From: Podospora anserina
Lineage: Eukaryota
Direction: 5' to 3'
Assembly: GCA_017654855.1 (NCBI GenBank)
Contig: CM030337.1
Span: 2,356,001 to 2,420,000 of the forward strand
DNA length: 64,000 nucleotides
Part shown: in pieces, positions 11,824-63,591 of the stretch
Numbering within the stretch: position 1 is the stretch's first letter
How the letters are laid out: every line of letters begins with the position of its first letter
Translations under genes and position numbers: made by a program
The notes under the pieces: generated by a model
What the model was told of the DNA's origin: nothing
The model's input: only the letters and a program-made list of their open reading frames with translations
Database searches by the model: none

Positions 11824-12930
11824 CTAATCAGAATTACCCGCAGATGGCACTCTTTGTTTGAGCGCAGCTAGCCTCTCCCGGGCCAGACGTTCCTCCTCAT
11901 ATCTCATCTCCTGCAACTTCCCAAGCATCTCGTCTTTCTATACGGCGTCAGCGATGTCCCAGGCTAGACCAGGTAGGTGCAGAAATAACATACAACTTTG
12001 ACGAGATTGGTGGGGTCATCCCCCGCATTCTGTGCCACTCCAATGAACATATGGCTTGTGATCCGGATCTGGAGTTCGAGACAGCGGAGTCGTTCGGTAA
12101 TATCGCGATGCAAATCCTCCGTCATTTTGGTGAGCTGGTTCGCGGTGAGATTAGCGTTGTGTGGCTGCAAGAACACTGAGTCAGTTTCTGGTTGTGGAAG
12201 TGGTATCAAGAGTACGGTGGGACGAATCAAAACGACCTAGCGTGAACATGAAGATAAAGGCAGACCCAAAAGGAACATCAACCTACAGAGGATTTGTGAT
12301 CATGAATACTGAGAGTTTGAACCCTGGCAGTTGTCTCAGCAACCCGGACATCAACAACCTGTCCTCCCGTCAGCGAAAGTGTACAAGACAACAAACTGGT
12401 AAGTCACATCGCAAATTGCCACCCATGCCCAGGCAGTGCTTGACGCTGACCCCGGCCGCTACGCCTTTCCAAGAACGCAAACAAACCCGAAACGACACCG
12501 GTTAAGCAACCCTCCCTGGAACTTTCAGAGAAGTTCGGGAGGAAAGGTCTACCCACTGATGTCGATCAGACATCACGCAAGCTAAGCCTGCTAGGGCCGG
12601 CGTGGACACCCCACTACCGTATGTGAGGTTAGGCCAGTTGAGTCACCTCGGAACTTTGTTGCTGAGGTTGGTCCCAGCAACCGCATTCAAGTCCTGCAAG
12701 CCCATGCCGGTATTGCGCTGAAAAAGCCACGCAAGGCGATGTGTCTTCGGCAACCGAGACGCTCAAACGAGACGCCATCGCAAAAGTGGCGGAGATCAAA
12801 GAGATGAGGAGAATGGAGAGATGATATTCCATATGAGGCTGGTTGGGCAAAGAACTGGGCAAGGGGCAAAGGGGATGCCGGGGGGAAGACTTACCACCTG
12901 GTCAGTGGTGCTGGGTTGGATCTCAGTCAT
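11824..12930 (-). CDS. Small coiled-coil protein A (96 aa, three exons, 760-nt first intron)
   Basis: Exons 12930-12895 (MTEIQPSTTDQV), 12134-11994 and 11937-11824. Intron 12894-12135 (GTAAGT...GCTAAT...CAG) and intron 11993-11938 (GTATGT...GCTGAC...TAG) are both phase 0 and give an open frame. Confidence 0.7.
12350..12896 (-). ncRNA. Candidate structured intronic RNA element, copy A
   Basis: Colinear homology to 53751-54279, hairpins with compensatory changes, and a long-range complement of the 5' splice site at 12397-12405. Confidence 0.6.
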
Positions 12931-13477
12931 TGCTGTTGACGGGAGGATGAAGTGATCGAAAAGATTGGCATGAAAATTTATAGAGATGGTGGGAATCTGG
13001 GATATGAAAGACCCAAGGTCGATTACTGGTGGACACCTGGGTTAAGAGTGAGAGGGAAGAATGGAAATGCAAAGGGATCGGTTTGGGGAGAAATTCGAAG
13101 AGGTGGCCTGAATATATATACCTGTGGGTTGTGTGTCTGTGCGCGCCTGCAAATCTCTCGGGGCAAGTAGCCATCACTGTTGGCTGGCTGTGATCCTTAT
13201 TCACTTGTGGGGGGGCCTGGGCAAGTGAATGTGTTGCAAGCTCAGAGAAACCTGGAGCAACAGTAGATGTGGGACCGAGTCATAGACATCTCAGTTTTCA
13301 GAGACCTCCGTCATATTCCATAGTTAAAAATGGGAAGGAAGGAGCAACGGACGGCCCCCACCTCACTGCAGCAACGGCATTTTTCTGATACTCACAGCAG
13401 CAAACCATTTGTTGTGATAAAGTTGGAACGACTCCCGTCCCAGTTTGCGACCTTTTCAAACAATACCGCCTGTCAAG

Positions 13478-24800: not shown

Positions 24801-27429
24801 TAAAAATAGTAATACCTTCTTAGTCGGCCCAGGTAACTATACGGCTATCGTTAAAGGTTTTAAAGCCCTAAATAAATTCCGTACCGCTATTAAAGCCGAT
24901 AATACTAATTTTATACCCGGTTTAGTACGCGATTTTCGTCTCGAAATCCTTAACTTTATCGAATACTTACTTTTTCTTTATTATAAAGTTAATTTACTTA
25001 TAATTACTTTATATATTTATATATTAAATAAAATATTTATAATTTAAATATTTAAGGTTTTTATAAATAATAATATTAATATAAATAAAGTTAAATAGGT
25101 TATTAATTTACGAAAAGATTAATAAACTTAATTAATTTATTATTTTTATTATTATATAAAGCTCGTAAAAAAAGTTATTACCGATAAGCTTAATACCTAC
25201 CTATATATAAGTTTTATAAATATCGTTCTTATTAATATATATTAAGTAATAATATATTACCCGGTAATTAATAAATATTATTATAACTTTAATAAAAATT
25301 TTTATTAAAAATATTTTACTAAAATTAATATTAAGTATTATATTTATTTAATATATATTATTATTCCTAATTAATTTATATATTACTTATTTAATACCTT
25401 TAAGGATTAAATTATAACTTTTTTAGTCCTAAAAAATACTTTTATTAAGTAACTTATCCGCCGATATTAAATTAACGGGCGCTTATAAATAATATATCGC
25501 TTCCTTAAACTTTAAAGTAATAACCTAATTACTTAAAAAGGTAAATTATAACGCTACAGTACTCTAATAACTATATTTTATAATATTTCTTAACGACGAA
25601 AGGAACCTCTTTTCCTTCCCTTTAGGTAGTAAATAAAGTTTAATAAATTACTTTAATTTATTAAATATAAAATCTATATATCCGGAGTCGTAATATATAT
25701 AATTTTTAAATACTTTAACGGCTTATTAAATTTTAAAAATATTTATTAAGGAAAGTATTACTTTTAAGGGCCAAAACGAAAATCTAATTAATTATTATTA
25801 TAGTAAGTAAGGAATAATATATTAACGAAGTTATTAAATAGTATTAAAATATTATAAATAAATTAATCCTTCGAAAATCTAATATTAGTAATACTATTAG
25901 TATAGCCTTAAAAAATCTTTATTAATAAGCTAATACTTTACCGCTTTTCTTACCTATCCACTTATACCTTTTCCCTATACTCCTAATCTTTTAAAGCTTT
26001 ATTAAAATTATATTACTAATAGACTTTACTTTTCGGGTAATAACGATTATAATTTATATAATATTAATTATTTTTCTTTAAACTTTTAATATATTAATCG
26101 TATTTCTTTATTAAGATTAATAACATAATAAATAAAAGTATAATTACGGCTAGGGTTTTAATAATTTTAATAGTAATTTTAAAGTAAATTAATATAGTTT
26201 TTTTTATAACGGCTTTAACGTTATACTCCTAATAAAAAAGCGACTAGGTTATAGTACCGTCTTTTATTTTCCTTACTAACCGATCGTATAAATCGGGGTA
26301 CGTAGTTTTAATATTATTTAAGGTAATCCAAAAGTAAATTACGTAACCAATCTTAATTTCTATTATATTAAAACGATAGTGAAGGACCTTAAACTAATTA
26401 AAATAAATTTAAAATAAAGCGAAATTAATATACTTAAAAGTAAAATACTCCTTTAAAAATATATTAATAATATCGAAAGTACTATATTATAAGGCTTAAA
26501 TAACTTTTTAATATAAACTATAAATATTAATACTATCGGCCTTTTAACCTAAATTAAAAATTTATTATCGGATCTCGGGCTTTTTAACGGAAACTATTAT
26601 TAGATTTTAAATATTTAGATTATTAATACGCTATTGGTCGAAGGTAAGTATCTTTTTTTCCGTTAATAATTATATATTAACTTTAATATAGTCCTCTAAA
26701 CTATAATATATAAAGGATTAAGTTAATTAAAATTCTTAACCGGAAAAATCGGTTTTTAAGTTTAAAGCTAATAAAATTTAAAAGGTTCGTTACTTAACCG
26801 TAACGACGGTATTAATATTCCCTATAACTTTTATAAATTCTAAAAACTAAACTATAATAACGTTAATACTAATTATTTTAAAAGAAAAACTAATTAAAGA
26901 AAAGTCGTAAAAAAGATACTATAAAAAAAACGTTAAAAGAAAAATTTAAAGAAAGGCGTTACTTAACTTTATAACCGTTAATAGTAGGTTAAATTAATTT
27001 AAGTAAAGGGCGAGATACTTACTTTGCTATCGGTCTCCTAATAAGGCAGGATAGAGTTCTCGACTGCTACTGGAAAATAGTAACTTCTTAATTAAAAGGT
27101 TATAAAAATAATAGAATTAAAGAAACTTAATTAGGAAAAGGTTAGTACCGTAAACTATACTCTTATTAGTAAGGGGTGGTCGGTCGCTTTAACTCTTCGT
27201 TAAAATAAGGGTTAGGGTTAAAACCAGGCTTCCGTTGATTAGGAAGTTAGTTAACTCTCTTAACGCCTCTAAAATCGCCGTCGAAAGATTTAATTATATA
27301 ATATTAGCCTAACAAAGGTCGAAAAGTCGTAAGGTCCGGTGTGGTATTCGGCTTTGCGAGGTCGGGTTGTCGACGAGGGCGTCGACTTCGGTTTACTTAG
27401 TAATTTAAGCGTTAAAAAAGCTTATAACC

Positions 27430-52044: not shown

Positions 52045-53068
52045 GGTGCTCGCTCCTCTGAATGGGAGCTGGTAAAAAGGCGATAAACGCCCTTTTGTCG
52101 GCGCAATGGAGCGCGGGGGGTTATATATGCAATGGCGGGCGAGACGAAGCTCTCGAATGCTTGGCTAGCCCCGATGCGAAATCGCTATCTGTGTGTATGG
52201 CGATTCGAGACAATTGAATATGCGGCGATGGCTGGTCTGGTGATCGTTGTAATGAGGTGTTGTGGAGGGCAAAAAAGTCGGCAAAGCGGGGAGCTACACG
52301 TGCACCACAACAATTGAGTTCGGTTAGTCAGCTGCCAGTGTGACTGACAGTTGTGGCACAACATCTGATTGGATGGCGCAGAAGGACGCATCGCCAACTT
52401 GCATGAGGCCACCACTTGCATCCACGACATTGCAAGCAATGAAGTTCTCATCATTACGCACGAAGCAGAATTCATCATGTTGGCTTCTAAGGTCTGTCCT
52501 CATGTAAATAGCAAGGCGGCCGAGTATCTATCGTCATTGCTTTCAAGAATGTAGTCATATGGCCCCTTTGAATCCTCTCATTCCCACCTCGTTTTCGTGA
52601 TTGCATAAGCCACCAGGTAGGTAGACACCCCGTCTTTCCGGTAACCAGAACCACTGTCTGCGCAAGAGCTTCAATATGTGCATTGCTAGACTAACACTCT
52701 TCCATACTGGTGTCCATCGCGATTCTGCAAGGGGATAAGAACCTGTTCGGCATCACTCCACGTTTCTGTTGTGATTGCACCAACTAGCCGACAGTTGTTT
52801 GTTTTGAAGTTTGTAGTGCAGCACGTCGATCTTCGACCCTAGCCAAGTCCGTGCCTCCTCCGCATATCTCCACTTTGCCCAACGACATCCGTACTCTAAT
52901 GATCGCCGGTCCCGGTCCCGGTCCCATAGCGGGACTCCCGTCTCACAGATCAAACACAAGCAATCGCTTCGGGCCAAAGCTACAATACAACCATTTGTCA
53001 TCGACTTCTCAACGCCATGCTATCGACTAAGGTATCGTCGCATCCCTGTTACTAACTAAAAAAGTCCC

Positions 53069-54304
53069 TCAAGAAGTCTTCTTCTCTGGCGTAGGACTCC
53101 TGCCCCGAGCCTCATAGTGTTCCATCTTCACTGCCTGCTCATCTTCAAACTCACGCTCCTGTGCCTCCTTCATCTCTCTCGATCTGGTGGAGATCGTTTG
53201 CATCTGCATCGATGTTAGCTTGCTGTCCAAACTTCACACGATGCACAAATAGAAATGTCACCGAACTTACCCCTTGGCGGATGCGCATGTCAGCAGACAC
53301 GTCTATCAACAGCTCTCTCATTGCTTTGTTCTCAAACTCGAGAACCTTCAATCTATTCTCAAGAAACTGGAACTGTGTCTTTACATGTCCCCAAATATTA
53401 TCAGAATCCTCGGTGGTCGACTGCTCCAACATTTGCAAGCCTTGATCAACCAAGATGACACCAGCATTGGCAACCAGTGAACCCATGCGAGGATCTTTCT
53501 GACATGTGCCAGAGTCACGACACAACTCAGTCGCAGTCATGCCCTCCTTGTTGACGGTCCACAGGATATCGCGCACCAGCTCCTCAGGCTCGGTCTTCAA
53601 AACAGTGTCCAACTCCTCGATCTGATCGATGAACTTAGCACATGGGAAAACGGGCAAGGTCAAGGAAAAATGAAGGCAAAGACTTGCAGAGGTGTGCCCG
53701 GTGAGGCTGAGACCGCTCACCAAGGCAGCGGCAGAGTCGGCGACATCTTAATCAACAGCCTAAAGCCCGCCAGTAAAGTGCACAAAGACAAAAGCTGGTA
53801 AGTCCCATCACAGATTGCCACCCTCGCCCAATCAGTGCTTCACTCTGGACACCTGAATCCTGCCCCGTCCAAGAGCACAGACCCTGAACGTTCTGGTTAG
53901 TCACTCCCCCACATGCTTCAAGAAGCTCGGGGGATAAGGAGACCATTGATGGTATCAGCATCGGCGAATAGCCGGGCCAGCGTACACACCCCACTACCGT
54001 ATGCCGGGGTTGAGCCAGAGTCACCTCGGAACTTGTTGATGAGGTTGGCCCCAACAACACCATTCAAGAACTGCAAGCCACGCCAATTGCGGGAGAGTGA
54101 AACCACCAAGGCGAAAAGTCCCTGGCAGTTCGGTAGACCCTCAAAGAGATGATGCCCCTCGCAAAATAGCTGAGATCGAAGGCTTGAGGAGAATGTGAAG
54201 AAGTGATGTTCCACAAGAGGCTGGTTGGGCAAAGGACTGGGAAGGATGGCAAAGAAGATGTCGGGCGAAGAACTTACCATTTGGTCTTGGTCGAATGAGG
54301 CCAT
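53069..54304 (-). CDS. Small coiled-coil protein B (170 aa, three exons, 656-nt first intron)
   Basis: Exons 54304-54278 (MASFDQDQM), 53621-53271 and 53203-53069. Intron 54277-53622 (GTAAGT...GCTAAG...CAG) and intron 53270-53204 (GTAAGT...GCTAAC...CAG) are both phase 0 and give an open frame. Confidence 0.75.
53751..54279 (-). ncRNA. Candidate structured intronic RNA element, copy B
   Basis: Colinear homology to 12350-12896; complement of the 5' splice site at 53796-53804; conserved hairpins. Confidence 0.6.
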
Positions 54305-54462
54305 CGTCAGAGTCGCTCAAAGGGCGAAAGTGCTTGGGACGAGAGGAAGGCGAAGGTGATGATGATGGTGAAATGGTGGTGACTGAGAAGGATGGCGACG
54401 GGAGGCAGTGGTGGCAGGTCGTGGCCAACAGGGCGAGCAATTGTAAAATTTATTGGAAGTGG

Positions 54463-54510
54463 AAAGAATTGAAAGGGAAAAGAATTGAAAGGGAAAAGAA
54501 TTGAAAGAGG
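54463..54510. repeat. 16-bp tandem repeat x3 in the putative 5' UTR of gene B
   Basis: aaagaattgaaaggga twice, plus one imperfect copy. Confidence 0.85.
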
Positions 54511-54558
54511 AAATTTTTGCAAGAGAGAATTGAGGGGGAGATTGTGGGAGGGAGGAGT

Positions 54559-54568
54559 TGAATATATA
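54559..54568 (-). promoter_or_regulatory. Putative TATA box of gene B (TATATATTCA)
   Basis: The same tgaatatata string (plus strand) lies upstream of gene A at about 13109-13118. Both are followed on the coding strand by pyrimidine-rich leaders. Confidence 0.45.
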
Positions 54569-56349
54569 GCCGGTGGTCATGGGTCTTTGCGTGCCTGCAA
54601 ATTCCGGGAGCAGTTGTAAATAGTCTGTGCGTGGCCTATAGAATCTCAAGGACAATACCGTCGTCATCTTTGATGCCTTATTGCTCTTTCTGTTGTGGTC
54701 TTCTTTCAGTGCCTGCCGGTGTGGGAGCAACCTTGATGGCTGAGGATCAGACGACAATGGGATAAGTGGGCCCAACAGACGGCGTGGAATCTCCTGGATG
54801 CTGCTGCCATCAGCTCTGGGGCTAGATAGATATCCATGTTAAGTGGCAGTTTTGTATATCACTCAAGATCCAACAAGGCCAGTGCGATGTTCTAGTTCCA
54901 AGATTCTGGTCTAAGGGGGCTTTAACTCTGCTCTACTATCTCCTTCTAAACATCTCATCCTCCAGCTCATATTTAAAGTACCGTAGATGCTTAAAGAAAG
55001 TCTATATCTATTTCCCTACGATATCGGAGTGGAAAGATTATCCGAAGGCTTGCAACCCAGTGAGCTGAGACAAGTTGTGATGACTTCAAGACAAGTCAAA
55101 GCACTGGGTTGTCTATTCTCTCCTCAAATTTCAACCAACGTCCCCAGAAGCTCCATCTCAACATACATCCCCCTAAGTAGCAATCAAGATTGAAAGCGAA
55201 ATCACAGTTTTCCCATCTTGGAACCTATCTAAATCTTACCCCAGAACTTTACAAAAACTTCTCCCAGATTCATCCCAGAGTTCGCCCCCCAGCAATATTA
55301 GCAGCATGCACAAAGAAAACCAAACCTATTCCATCATTAAACAAAACCACCAAAAGAACGCCACCCCCCCCCCAACCCAGTCCAGGTTTCCATCCTGATT
55401 ACTACTACTATGAGAGTAAACCACCATTTAACACCACCTCCACAATTTGGGCATCCTCACCCCCTCAAGTCCACAATCCCAGCCTTGTTCCCCTTCGGGC
55501 GCCAGCGAGCCTCCCCATCACAGAAGTCAGAAGCTGAGCAGCCGGTCACGGCTAACGAAGAGCATACCGTCTGGTACCACTCGATCCCTGCATCTCTGTC
55601 CTCCACATCACTTTTCAACCAAGCAATGGCAGACTTGTTTTGAGCAGACTTGCTCCGAACAGTCTTGGGCTGAACAGTTTTGGCCTGCCGAGATGGGCAG
55701 AGTATCACCTGTTCGCGCTGCTGGATGTTGGGGGTTGGAATGCTGAGAAGGAGATGCCCGTCTGCGCCGGACAGTTACGGAGGGGCTGCTTAGAAAGGCA
55801 GCGACAGAATGCGTCCAAACCCACGACCAACAGCAGCGTGAGCAGTTGCCGATACTGTCATCCAAGCATATGGGAAATGAAAACAGCGGATTGAGACTTC
55901 GTTTCCAAGACAAGAAAGAGGAAAAGAAGTGCCAGCAACAATAGATCGACACAAAAGAGATAAGTGCGAGAACATCACAACCTGGAACAAATGGTCAAAG
56001 TACAATTGTGTTCAGGATGGATGGTAGGCTAGAAATATATAAAGTCAGGAGACAATCGATTTGATATAAACACCGTTCGCAGTGAAGATGCAAGAGTGGC
56101 AAAGATAAACACAGCACTGGGAAGACATCCGGAGAAATAGTAATGGCCTTTAGACACAACAAATAGGCCTCCGCAGATAGGCAATGCCCCTTGAGAGATA
56201 ACCTCTCGGCCTTTCCAGGTCGTCCAAGGGGTTCCGAAAAAGTATTTGCGGCCTCTGAAAATGTTGAAAAGGCCTTGTAATATAGTTCAAAGCCCCAAAA
56301 TGATTACCAAAGACGTCTTGCGAGATAGCCTTGAGGCATAATTATATTT

Positions 56350-60779: not shown

Positions 60780-62336
60780 TGTGATGCTTTGATGAATCTC
60801 GCGTGTCGCTTGGGCGTGTTTTGCTGTCGTTTGGATAGCGACCGTGGTCTGGCTGGAAAAAGAAAGTGTGCGGTTGGACAAGGGGAGAAATGACATTGTG
60901 GACTACTGCCAAATCGTATATGGGGTGCAAAAAGGTGTCAATTCTGTTGTTTTTACGAGGGTGTGTTGCCCGGTTGGCTGGAAAAGGCCGAACCCAGCGG
61001 CTCAGGTCCTACTGCCAAGATATTAATTCCTTAACAGTGGGCCTCATTGACTATTCTGACAAACTCCCAGTGAATTTCTTGTGGGGCATTGCACGTGAAT
61101 GCTACCACGATCAGCGACTTGGCATAACTTTATTTCAACGTCTCTCCAACATACATACAAGTACATATCGGACAACTCTCTGATCCATTACCGGCACCAT
61201 TTCGACCTCTTTGGACACACCATCAGGAAACATGATGGTTAACGGGGGCCATTGGTGAACCACAGCGGAAACCTATCAACATTATATTTATCCATGATCC
61301 TTGGAGTCGACGAAATCTTTGGACCCCAATGGGTATGTTAAAGGCATGTGTTCAATGTGATTTCTGATTTGCAGCCGGTGCTAGTTGGGATGGAGGCTTT
61401 CTTTTCAATTGCCCTCATTCTTTTTTCACTTTCTTTTGAGTTCGGATGGGTTGATTTGCAATGACATGTTTTACCTGGTAATGGGATACCTTATCTTGGA
61501 GAAACACCACGAATTGCATCAGTTTCTACAAGAGATTTACTGTAGAGTTTGCTTCTTTGGTAGATATTCTCTTTAGGCAACGGCATTCCTGTGATCCGGT
61601 CACACCGCCCATAAGGTGCTCGACTTTGCCTTTTCCTACATTGGGTATGAGAGGATTATCCTTCTTTGGTGACCAAAGAAGGATGTCTGAAGCTGAAAAG
61701 GCTTAGCCAATCTCAACGAGTAGCACCAGAGGTATGTCCCGTTAGCTGGAGCTCAGAAGCATCAAACGACACTCAGACAAGAGATTGTGGGGTCTGGTTT
61801 CTTGGGTGAGGTCTTCATATCAAAAGAACAACCCCGAAGTCGTTCTGGCTGGCAGACACAGAGACTTCGAACAGCCGTCAGGCTGAAGGTTCCATCATTG
61901 GAAGGTTCAAATTGGTAGTCATCTTTCCCCCCTACACTACCAATATCATCACTCATTGCTCTATCCAGGGCTTCCGTCATGACGCTTCTCGGAGCTGCTC
62001 TTTGAAAGGTGGGTCCGTGTGACTCTCAGCAGTCCAGCTGAAGGAGTAACATGACCATCCTCACCGCCCCAACCACACCAAGAGCAACCTGGGATAGCAA
62101 CATGTCCAATGACCTGAAGGTGGTCAATTCGAGCAAATGTGAAGTTGCAAGCGCGCACAGACCATCTACGTGGGGGGATATATACTCGACTTTCTGCCCA
62201 CCAAATTCCCAACTCTTCCCTCTTCTCTTTTTTCAGCTCTCGTCACAATACCTATTTTCTCGTTTTGCCGCCCTTTTTTCTGTTCCATTTTTTCTTCTTT
62301 TTCAGAAAAGAATCCCGCGCCGCCTGCTCGCCCGCA

Positions 62337-62960
62337 ATGGCCCAGCCCAACTGGCACAAGCGTTCTTCCGAACGCCCAGACTTGGTAAGTCGCTTCCGCA
62401 TCCTTTCCCCTCTGTCATGCGAGCCATTCCTCCTGCAAGAACCTCTCGGTTCCGGGGAAGTTTTCCGTTGCCTATCACACCTGATAAGCTGCTTTGTCTC
62501 ACTGGGATCACATTGTTGAACTGTTGGCTTCGTCCGACCAGAACGATGCTGATCTCGTTCAAAGTTGGAAGGTGATGGCCACCCAGGAGCCGCACTTGTG
62601 TTGGATTCGGGTGTCTGGTTCCAAGAGACCTCAGTCGCCTCACACAACGCCCCTGATGATAGGGCAGTGGTTCCACGGTCTCGCCGCCTAGATATCCTAG
62701 TTGCCCGTGTCCGGAAGGCCAAGAAGAGATTCAGATTTGGAGGGTGCGCTGTCAGGTGCAGAGTAATGATAATGGACTCAGTTGCATGGCAGCTTGGAAA
62801 CCGACTTACTCATCCTTTATGCCGATTCGTGATTGATGACTGGGTGAGCAGAACCTCTTCGAGCATTTCCAATTTCGCCCGCCGACGTCCGCGTACAAAT
62901 GTCATCAGCACGTAGGTTTGTCTCCAATGTATCCTCCATCTAATAGACACCAAAGCTCCA
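62337..62960 (+). other. Third short-exon / long structured intron locus (C); downstream coding part appears degenerate
   Basis: TATA-like atatatactc at about 62179; ATG exon 62337-62384; GTAAGT at 62385; complementary cgacttact at 62802-62810; CTAAT branch at about 62940. Confidence 0.5.
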
Positions 62961-63591
62961 GAACCGAGTACAGGATACGAAGAAGTAGCTGCGCCGGATA
63001 TATCAGCACTCATCTTGAATCTGTTTTTGTGTCTTTCGGCTACTTCATCAAATCTCAAACCTCACAGTTACCACTTGCTGGACATATGCTGGGATAAATA
63101 TCTATACGTCTGCAGGCGTTTCTTGAGTATTGGCTCCATCGTTTATACATGCCACACCATAAAGCTGGGATGCTGTACACGCGCCACGCTAAAACGGCCA
63201 AGATTAACATTGATGCTTCTGCAAAACGTTGATACAAATTAGTGAGCTTCAGTTCATCTTGATCAGAGTGTCAAGAGTGTCACCTGATAGCTTTTCATTG
63301 CGTAGCAATGTCTCAGCTGAAAACACTTAGTTTCTGTTCAAACAAAGGGTTACATCCAACGCAGACTTCCCATCAATGCGTTCAAGCTGGGATCTACCTC
63401 CTATATCTTAAAATCTCCTTCACCAGTCCACCTCACCTGCCAATACTTTTTCAATTCCCCACGCAAAATCGACCACGCAAAAATAACTATTCAATTGACT
63501 CCCTAAATATCATACATCTACCACCAAACCCACAACAACAAATCCCACATCAATCTCCTATCTTCCCTCCCCCCGACCCACAACAACCAAT

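Follow-up and report, generated by a model that had tools for sequence, protein, structure and literature searches.

Near the end of a 64,000-nucleotide stretch of Podospora anserina DNA (contig CM030337.1; hereafter the window), a short ATG exon runs into a 5' splice site that is complementary to a segment several hundred nucleotides downstream. The original prediction set this locus, termed C, beside two others in the window, A and B, and asked whether the arrangement is a family trait or a convergent mechanism, and whether C is a decaying or mainly non-coding copy. The reading preferred here, at a probability of about 0.45, is that C belongs to a small Sordariales orphan-gene family with one 5' cassette and a self-gating first intron. 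As read from the sequence, the cassette would comprise an snRNA-type promoter, a short phase-0 ATG exon, a first intron closed by a helix, and a U1-like anti-donor just upstream of the branch point. The feature is real, larger than first described, and apparently undescribed; the original prediction included neither the snRNA promoter nor a fourth copy, D.

A Pif1 helicase gene and a small gene flank C, with no annotated gene entered between them in the published transcript table (PMC9801653 Table S1). The predicted TATA-like box, pyrimidine leader and 16-codon ATG exon are all present on the forward strand, which carries every C feature given below. The snRNA-type upstream promoter element (62144 to 62163, one mismatch to a 20-nt pattern) is followed by TATATA (62179 to 62184), about 34 nt from the element start as in snRNA genes, and by a pyrimidine-rich leader aligned by eye (62200 to 62336), with transcription possibly starting near 62235 by analogy with U2 and U1 starts. 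The coding part of exon 1 (62337 to 62384) comprises 16 codons in phase 0 and begins with the sole ATG from the TATA box to the donor. The 5' splice site, GGTAAGTCG (62384 to 62392), is also the 5' arm of the closing helix; as originally proposed, it is complementary to the anti-donor CGACTTACT (62802 to 62810), which resembles the U1 5' end, through eight Watson-Crick pairs and one G-U. Beyond an unpaired bulge 3' of the donor helix (62393 to 62403), near-identical in a metagenome homolog (L067/L069), an extended helix joins 62404 to 62428 with 62771 to 62798, and both pairings noted earlier hold within it: 62412 to 62422 with 62782 to 62792, and CCATT at 62424 with AATGG at 62771. A putative branch region, with a non-canonical TTGAT or ATGAC, and the acceptor AG (62850 to 62851) are placed by position within 62833 to 62851. 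The peptide LQNRVQDTKK, formerly taken for exon 2, more likely belongs to exon 3: analogy with A, B, D and E points to a putative 60-nt exon 2 in phase 0 at both ends (62852 to 62911), a short putative second intron of 44 nt (62912 to 62955; GTAGGT, CTAAT at 62940, AAAG) and a putative exon 3 of ten codons plus TAG (62956 to 62988), giving a reading frame of 46 codons. Exact look-up of nine open frames around C found one of them, a leader read-through without a named member.

The local hairpin at 62541 to 62560 is present as claimed; its motif GAUGCUGAU, said to be common to A and B, is at chance level, and the hairpin is not a family motif. GATGCTGAT was rejected as a common motif, a 9-mer common to C and another such intron arising in 43-58% of shuffles; it lies at position 162 of 430 in C and at 317 of 485 in B, there outside any hairpin loop. 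Upstream of the Pif1 gene, window positions 60985 to 61061 form part of a short dispersed repeat with 21 genome matches, also found in other transcripts and perhaps a solo LTR or MITE.

The promoter places C in unexpected company. The element was first seen by aligning A, B and C, as a common stretch about 33 nt upstream of the TATA box. Scanned as a 20-nt pattern with up to two mismatches over the whole 36 Mb genome, it gives 18 matches, against none for the reversed pattern used as control, and 16 of these correspond to 12 snRNA or U3 genes and to A-D. By Rfam, the 12 genes are U1 (two), U2 (three), U4 (two), U6 (four) and U3 (one), the two U1 assignments lying below the gathering score at an E value of about 1e-10. 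A looser pattern with an obligatory TATA box yields nine distinct loci, namely five snRNA genes and A-D (control, 0). The snRNA genes and the cassette have the same upstream element, spacing, TATA box and pyrimidine tract; 'PSE-like' is the label given to the element in this analysis. Two element-like matches (L045 at C4:942442, and L048) have neither a TATA box nor an Rfam match. Two U5 genes were also found (L095 and L096), with the element absent within 150 nt upstream; they have TTATAAGCCC in common about 30 nt upstream. A conserved 3' hairpin (TTCATTG ... GAGGAAGA), which resembles an RNase III-type 3'-end signal, follows the element by 190-420 nt at 11 of the 12 U1/U2/U4/U6/U3 genes, U6 included (L031-L047). 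This snRNA-type hairpin is absent in B, C and D, and A has one loose match at +1106. An exon-by-exon search of the genome with PF12251, run without a eukaryotic positive control, gave no candidate for SNAPC3. Searches of open-access text, among it that of PMC9801653, PMC8216456, PMC3592445, PMC3597705, 10.1101/404004 and 10.1101/2020.12.30.424869, turned up no account of either the element or the introns.

Four copies are known in this genome, clustered, and this count is a lower bound. Copy A lies on the reverse strand at 12359 to 13153 (element 13134 to 13153, ATG 12930, donor 12894, anti-donor 12405 to 12399, acceptor near 12359), as does copy B at 53760 to 54601 (element 54582 to 54601, ATG 54304, donor 54277, anti-donor 53804 to 53798). 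The promoter scan located the element of D at C7:2432707-2432726, 12.7 kb beyond the window; the gene itself (L003:4754-5590, reverse strand) is Pa_6_515 (PODANS_6_515, chromosome 6). No further copies were found by DNA search, protein search, 3'-end pattern or a RIP-aware promoter scan of the region examined. The statement that C is not alignable to A or B stands for the intron interior, an nhmmer profile of A and B having no match in C or D; it fails for the promoter, which is common to all copies. In D, two in-frame TAG codons lie two codons apart and the frame apparently shifts after exon 2; the stops could reflect decay by C-to-T change or could be edited in the sexual stage.

The cassette also occurs in a second fungus. 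A metagenome scan with the element returned 28 loci: 15 are snRNA or U3 genes by Rfam, one is a cut-off U2 start recognised by eye, six AT-rich loci were set aside as chance, two end 130-155 nt after the element, two are copies of one RNA-like locus (L052 and L075), and two (L067 and L069) carry the cassette. The last two, near-identical and together termed E, have the ATG exon, donor, anti-donor 484 nt on, branch point and acceptor. E matches the C donor region at 27 of 31 nt and the A anti-donor region at 18 of 19 nt. In a further genome, the first 21 residues of a protein are identical (21/21) to an off-frame read of the anti-donor/branch/acceptor stretch of E, and the downstream protein is 71% identical to that of E. 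The excess of the off-frame identity over the coding identity speaks indirectly for conservation of this stretch at the nucleotide level.

What the copies have in common is a layout. The phase-0 ATG exon is found in all five, with the first ATG in phase 0 in four; TG precedes GTAAGT in every copy; and the first intron measures 470-705 nt, with 419-659 nt from donor to anti-donor. From anti-donor to putative acceptor the distance is 47 nt in A, 45 in B, 49 in C, 47 in D and 36 in E, and the putative exon 2 measures 72, 39, 60, 132 and 48 nt, respectively, a multiple of three in all five; the acceptors and second donors were chosen by position and consensus. The downstream proteins do not follow suit: four pairwise comparisons among those of B, D and E gave no significant similarity, so it is the cassette, not the protein, that defines the family. 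The C peptides have no significant match to D-family proteins (exon 1, 900-1263 of 2000 shuffles; in-frame exon 2, 68-175 of 2000), and one shifted frame of C exon 2, in a set of about 50 tests, gave 8 of 2000 with D exon 2. Pfam and ESM Atlas searches returned coiled-coil noise only, and a comparison of upstream partner genes gave a single weak match, between E and F (E value 0.005).

The common snRNA-type promoter, the fixed anti-donor to acceptor distance and the 27/31 match of E together argue for a family trait through common descent. Of the two alternatives in the original prediction, the first is therefore retained and convergence is not needed.

The donor complementarity is above chance in each copy. 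The helix is 8-9 bp long in all five and is equalled in 3-23 of 2000 shuffles of each, C reaching 23 of 2000 when its intron interior is shuffled; a comparable partner exists at only two of 51 other GTAAGT sites in 149,562 bases searched. At +8, the pair is C-G in B, G-C in C and A-T in D, three different Watson-Crick pairs, and it is unpaired in A and E. A second helix is matched in 25, 27, 38, 76 and 500 per 1000 shuffles in the five copies (combined p 0.002, or 0.009 without B). For C, the duplex between the first and last 60 nt has a z-score of -3.7 (1/1000 shuffles), and of -2.1 (27/1000) once the donor helix is removed. The chance-frequency comparison set by the original prediction thus comes out in favour of the donor helix of C, not of its whole-domain fold, which is at chance level (z -0.56, 10/40 shuffles); the corresponding z-scores are -2.3 in A, -2.4 in B and -4.2 in E. 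RNAalifold on A and B finds two-sided change at 14 of 126 pairs, outside the donor helix in every case; with two sequences only, this cannot demonstrate covariation. The bulge after the donor was also tested for pairing with the branch/acceptor region; this reached 1/1000 in B and 33/1000 in A, but 425, 284 and 125 per 1000 in C, D and E, and is unsupported.

Predicted folding of the donor helix depends on the segment considered. Its probability in C is about 1 within 62375 to 62820 and 0.97 from the probable transcription start to exon 2. Over 62330 to 62960 (z +0.54) the minimum-energy fold lacks it, the anti-donor pairing with the branch region instead; this alternative local pairing with the branch/acceptor region is worth -11.8 kcal/mol. 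When the leader is folded along with the rest, A, C and E are predicted to form the helix (0.97-0.99), and its probability is 0.0 for B and D. In predicted energy, the anti-donor on the donor reaches -12.2 to -14.9 kcal/mol, against -9.1 kcal/mol for the U1 5' end on the same donor. Before the anti-donor exists, the donor is computed to be only partly open (mean unpaired 0.21-0.59).

RNA data were examined as assembled contigs from four of 24 listed runs, over the stretch with B and C (A and D lie outside it); the RNA nature of these runs is a guess, none being on record as RNA. The predicted splice joint at 62385 did not appear in any of the four, nor did a joint at the B donor, and neither the putative exon 2 nor the second intron of C is seen in RNA. 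C is covered by one 151-nt contig inside the intron (depth 3.1, one of the four runs), a sparse cover that is no evidence of silence. A spliced forward-strand contig at 61874 to 62155, with an intron at about 61914 to 61968, ends in the C promoter element (one run of four, depth 2.5). B is covered at low depth over 52950 to 54709, its contigs traversing the promoter to 54709, with no sense-strand joints. There, a 103-nt forward-strand intron at 53798 to 53900 belongs to an antisense transcript and uses the B anti-donor as its donor (joint 53796-53900, GT..AG, two of four runs); no antisense joint was found at C in the four runs. This antisense use is the strongest result against pure masking, though in B the branch A is replaced by G and exon 2 contains a TAA.

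For splicing, D can be read through its orthologs in four other species (Apiosordaria backusii, Cercophora samala, Triangularia setosa and T. verruculosa), whose gene models are annotations. Against two annotated orthologs, the D exon 1 peptide scores 2 and 50 per 2000 shuffles with their N-termini, and the D exon 2 peptide in the predicted frame 0/2000 with both (other frames, 287-1147). Annotated orthologs thus join exon-1-like and exon-2-like peptides, and the long intron is probably real; judged from these sequences, it is probably removed at an acceptor 3' of the anti-donor. In P. anserina, the published D transcript has a 1087-nt leader in one library of the sexual-development set (PMC9801653 Table S1). 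By arithmetic on that table, its start falls 48 nt after the element start and 10 nt past the TATA box, the offset of 33,211 being given alike by the D ATG and the Pif1 ATG. The same source flags Pa_6_515 for intron retention by a method that scored annotated introns (PMC9801653), and the public D model places both TAG codons inside the flagged intron; the retained intron is probably the short one covering them.

Taken as a self-gating intron, the cassette would be transcribed together with the snRNA genes. U1 would have access to the donor only until transcription reaches the anti-donor, some 420-660 nt further on; with no U1 bound in time, the anti-donor would close on the donor, the intron would be retained, and mRNA output would be low or conditional. 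The extended helix might also bring donor and branch point side by side. That the masking regulates splicing is our interpretation, and the function of the feature is unproven. C itself is the weakest-supported copy and probably a weak or decaying one with promoter and helix intact, given its non-canonical branch point, 46-codon frame, lack of a significant D-family match and little RNA; the suspicion that it is decaying or mainly non-coding is accordingly plausible. A bolder form of the self-gating reading, which we regard as rather improbable, makes the cassette a gauge of spliceosome supply, one factor driving both snRNA genes and cassette and a U1 mimic racing U1, so that mRNA forms only while U1 is in ample supply. 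The small coiled-coil products, or else the retained RNA, would then act back on the output of snRNAs or control a function of the sexual stage, and the element would be the first snRNA promoter of PSE-like type in filamentous ascomycetes, one read in the absence of a recognisable SNAPC3.

Other readings have to be weighed against self-gating. The functional product could be RNA, either the structured intron itself, retained or excised, or a short capped RNA of exon 1 from the first splicing step, with the reading frames as passengers. The snRNA promoter, the common cassette ahead of unrelated proteins, the persistence of the helix in B and D despite their stops, the 71% identity of the A and B introns over 555 nt and the whole-domain folds of A, B and E all favour it; yet the preserved phase of the ATG exon and of exon 2 (splice sites chosen by hand), the D protein orthologs in four other species, the lack in B, C and D of the hairpin found at 11/12 snRNA/U3 genes, and the lack of an Rfam match make it unlikely. 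A shade less likely is that the helix promotes splicing, bringing the donor of an unusually long intron to its branch point and opening when the spliceosome engages. The fixed 36-49 nt between anti-donor and acceptor in five of five copies and the annotated splicing of D orthologs would fit, but such a role does not need the donor to be covered, whereas here all six donor bases are paired in a helix that outcompetes U1 in energy; in yeast examples the pairing lies beside the donor. Support for it also comes from the Neurospora NCU01977 riboswitch, in which long-range pairing near the donor raises donor use (PMC3597705).

The antisense joint at B raises another explanation, that the anti-donor is conserved for its role as donor in antisense splicing, the sense complementarity arising because both are GTAAGT. 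The joint itself, used in two of four runs, and the contigs that pass the B promoter speak for it. The pairing nevertheless exceeds the consensus, in the second helix (p 0.002-0.009) and in the covarying +8 position of B, C and D; a sense branch point and acceptor lie at a fixed distance; the sense strand folds better than the antisense in 5/5 copies (partly compositional); and C has no antisense joint, all of which leaves this explanation improbable. Finally, inverted 8-9 nt ends around 420-660 nt, in a region with AT-rich repeat relics, would suit an ancient non-autonomous transposon or introner, with donor and anti-donor as its terminal inverted repeats. Yet the four copies fall in 64 kb with none elsewhere by promoter or 3'-end pattern, none of seven other 3'-end pattern matches has an upstream GTAAGT, no target-site duplication is seen by eye, and promoter and putative acceptor lie outside the repeat, the latter by 36-49 nt; an origin of this kind is very improbable. 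In A, B and E a CAG directly follows the anti-donor, with a closed frame in A.

The promoter sharing, the geometry, the above-chance complementarity and the presence in a second fungus are what the analysis establishes. Judged by the searches of open-access literature, two things are apparently new: a conserved upstream element common to the U1, U2, U4, U6 and U3 genes of these fungi, and the use of that element by orphan genes that look protein-coding and have a U1 mimic in the first intron. The element offers a direct way to search for unknown Sordariales ncRNA genes and to identify the factor driving snRNA genes; the intron, in a fungus easily handled in the laboratory, offers a compact test of how U1 competes kinetically with an intramolecular helix. 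One candidate ncRNA gene is L052:1501-3036 with L075, which has an snRNA-type promoter, no Rfam match, no donor in 600 nt and no telomere template in 1.5 kb; L052 has no match in the P. anserina genome searched. Separately, a non-snRNA locus ended by the contig end (L051:1-135 and L073:1496-1655) has a promoter 40/44 nt identical to that of A and is possibly another family member. Elsewhere in the window, at 26641 to 27023, a GTAAGT has a 10-bp complement 373 nt downstream in AT-rich sequence (20-32% GC); a promoter element was not detected there, and the pairing is probably a chance match or the relic of a repeat.

Among known systems, the snRNA genes of this genome resemble the cassette in having the upstream element and TATA box at fixed spacing. 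Unlike them, it has no Rfam match and no 3' hairpin in B, C and D, and it has an ATG exon with introns; no spliceosomal or U3 model matches A-D, and a Sm site (A-T(4-6)-purine) is absent in A and C, with unaligned ones in B, D and E. A box C/D snoRNA host was rejected, A-D having no RTGATGA and no Rfam snoRNA near the gathering score, and an introner or MITE was rejected on copy number, four clustered copies (a lower bound) instead of a dispersed high copy. Splicing of the yeast RPL30 and RPS17B introns is governed by intramolecular pairing at the donor or close to it, which shortens the donor-to-branch distance; these are single housekeeping genes with ordinary promoters, whose pairing stays local in RPL30 and leaves the donor free in RPS17B. 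The present introns share intramolecular pairing at the donor and differ in the snRNA promoter and in pairing over the donor at long range. Pezizomycotina telomerase RNA, whose 3' end is made by the spliceosome, is likewise a long structured Pol II RNA with splice signals; unlike it, the cassette is multi-copy with a donor near its 5' end, and a telomerase RNA was rejected since A-E have no TTAGGG template (template from PMC3592445). The Neurospora genes rfk-1 and ncu07086 are also small orphan genes in which the first intron is unusual and a UAG comes early, but the rfk-1 intron is a 46-48 nt tandem repeat and that of ncu07086 measures 141 nt, the available descriptions mention no self-complementary donor, and kinship was rejected on the differing architecture. 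Those examined among the 17 fungal structures of PMC8216456 measure 57-343 nt, and none is tied to such a locus in its available text.

A close parallel is offered by the TPP riboswitch introns of Neurospora NMT1 and NCU01977, in which pairing over about 500 nt near the 5' splice site sets site use (PMC3597705). Like them, the cassette introns are long, with long-range pairing at the donor region, here by prediction and statistics. A riboswitch was rejected for want of an Rfam match: a TPP aptamer has none at the gathering score in the window, nor at E values up to 0.5-10 in A, B, C and D. Unlike the riboswitch introns, the partner here is a U1-like copy of the donor complement just before the branch point, in orphan genes under an snRNA promoter. 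The mode would be structure-controlled splicing as in these systems, and self-masking by such a mimic may be an undescribed way of gating it.
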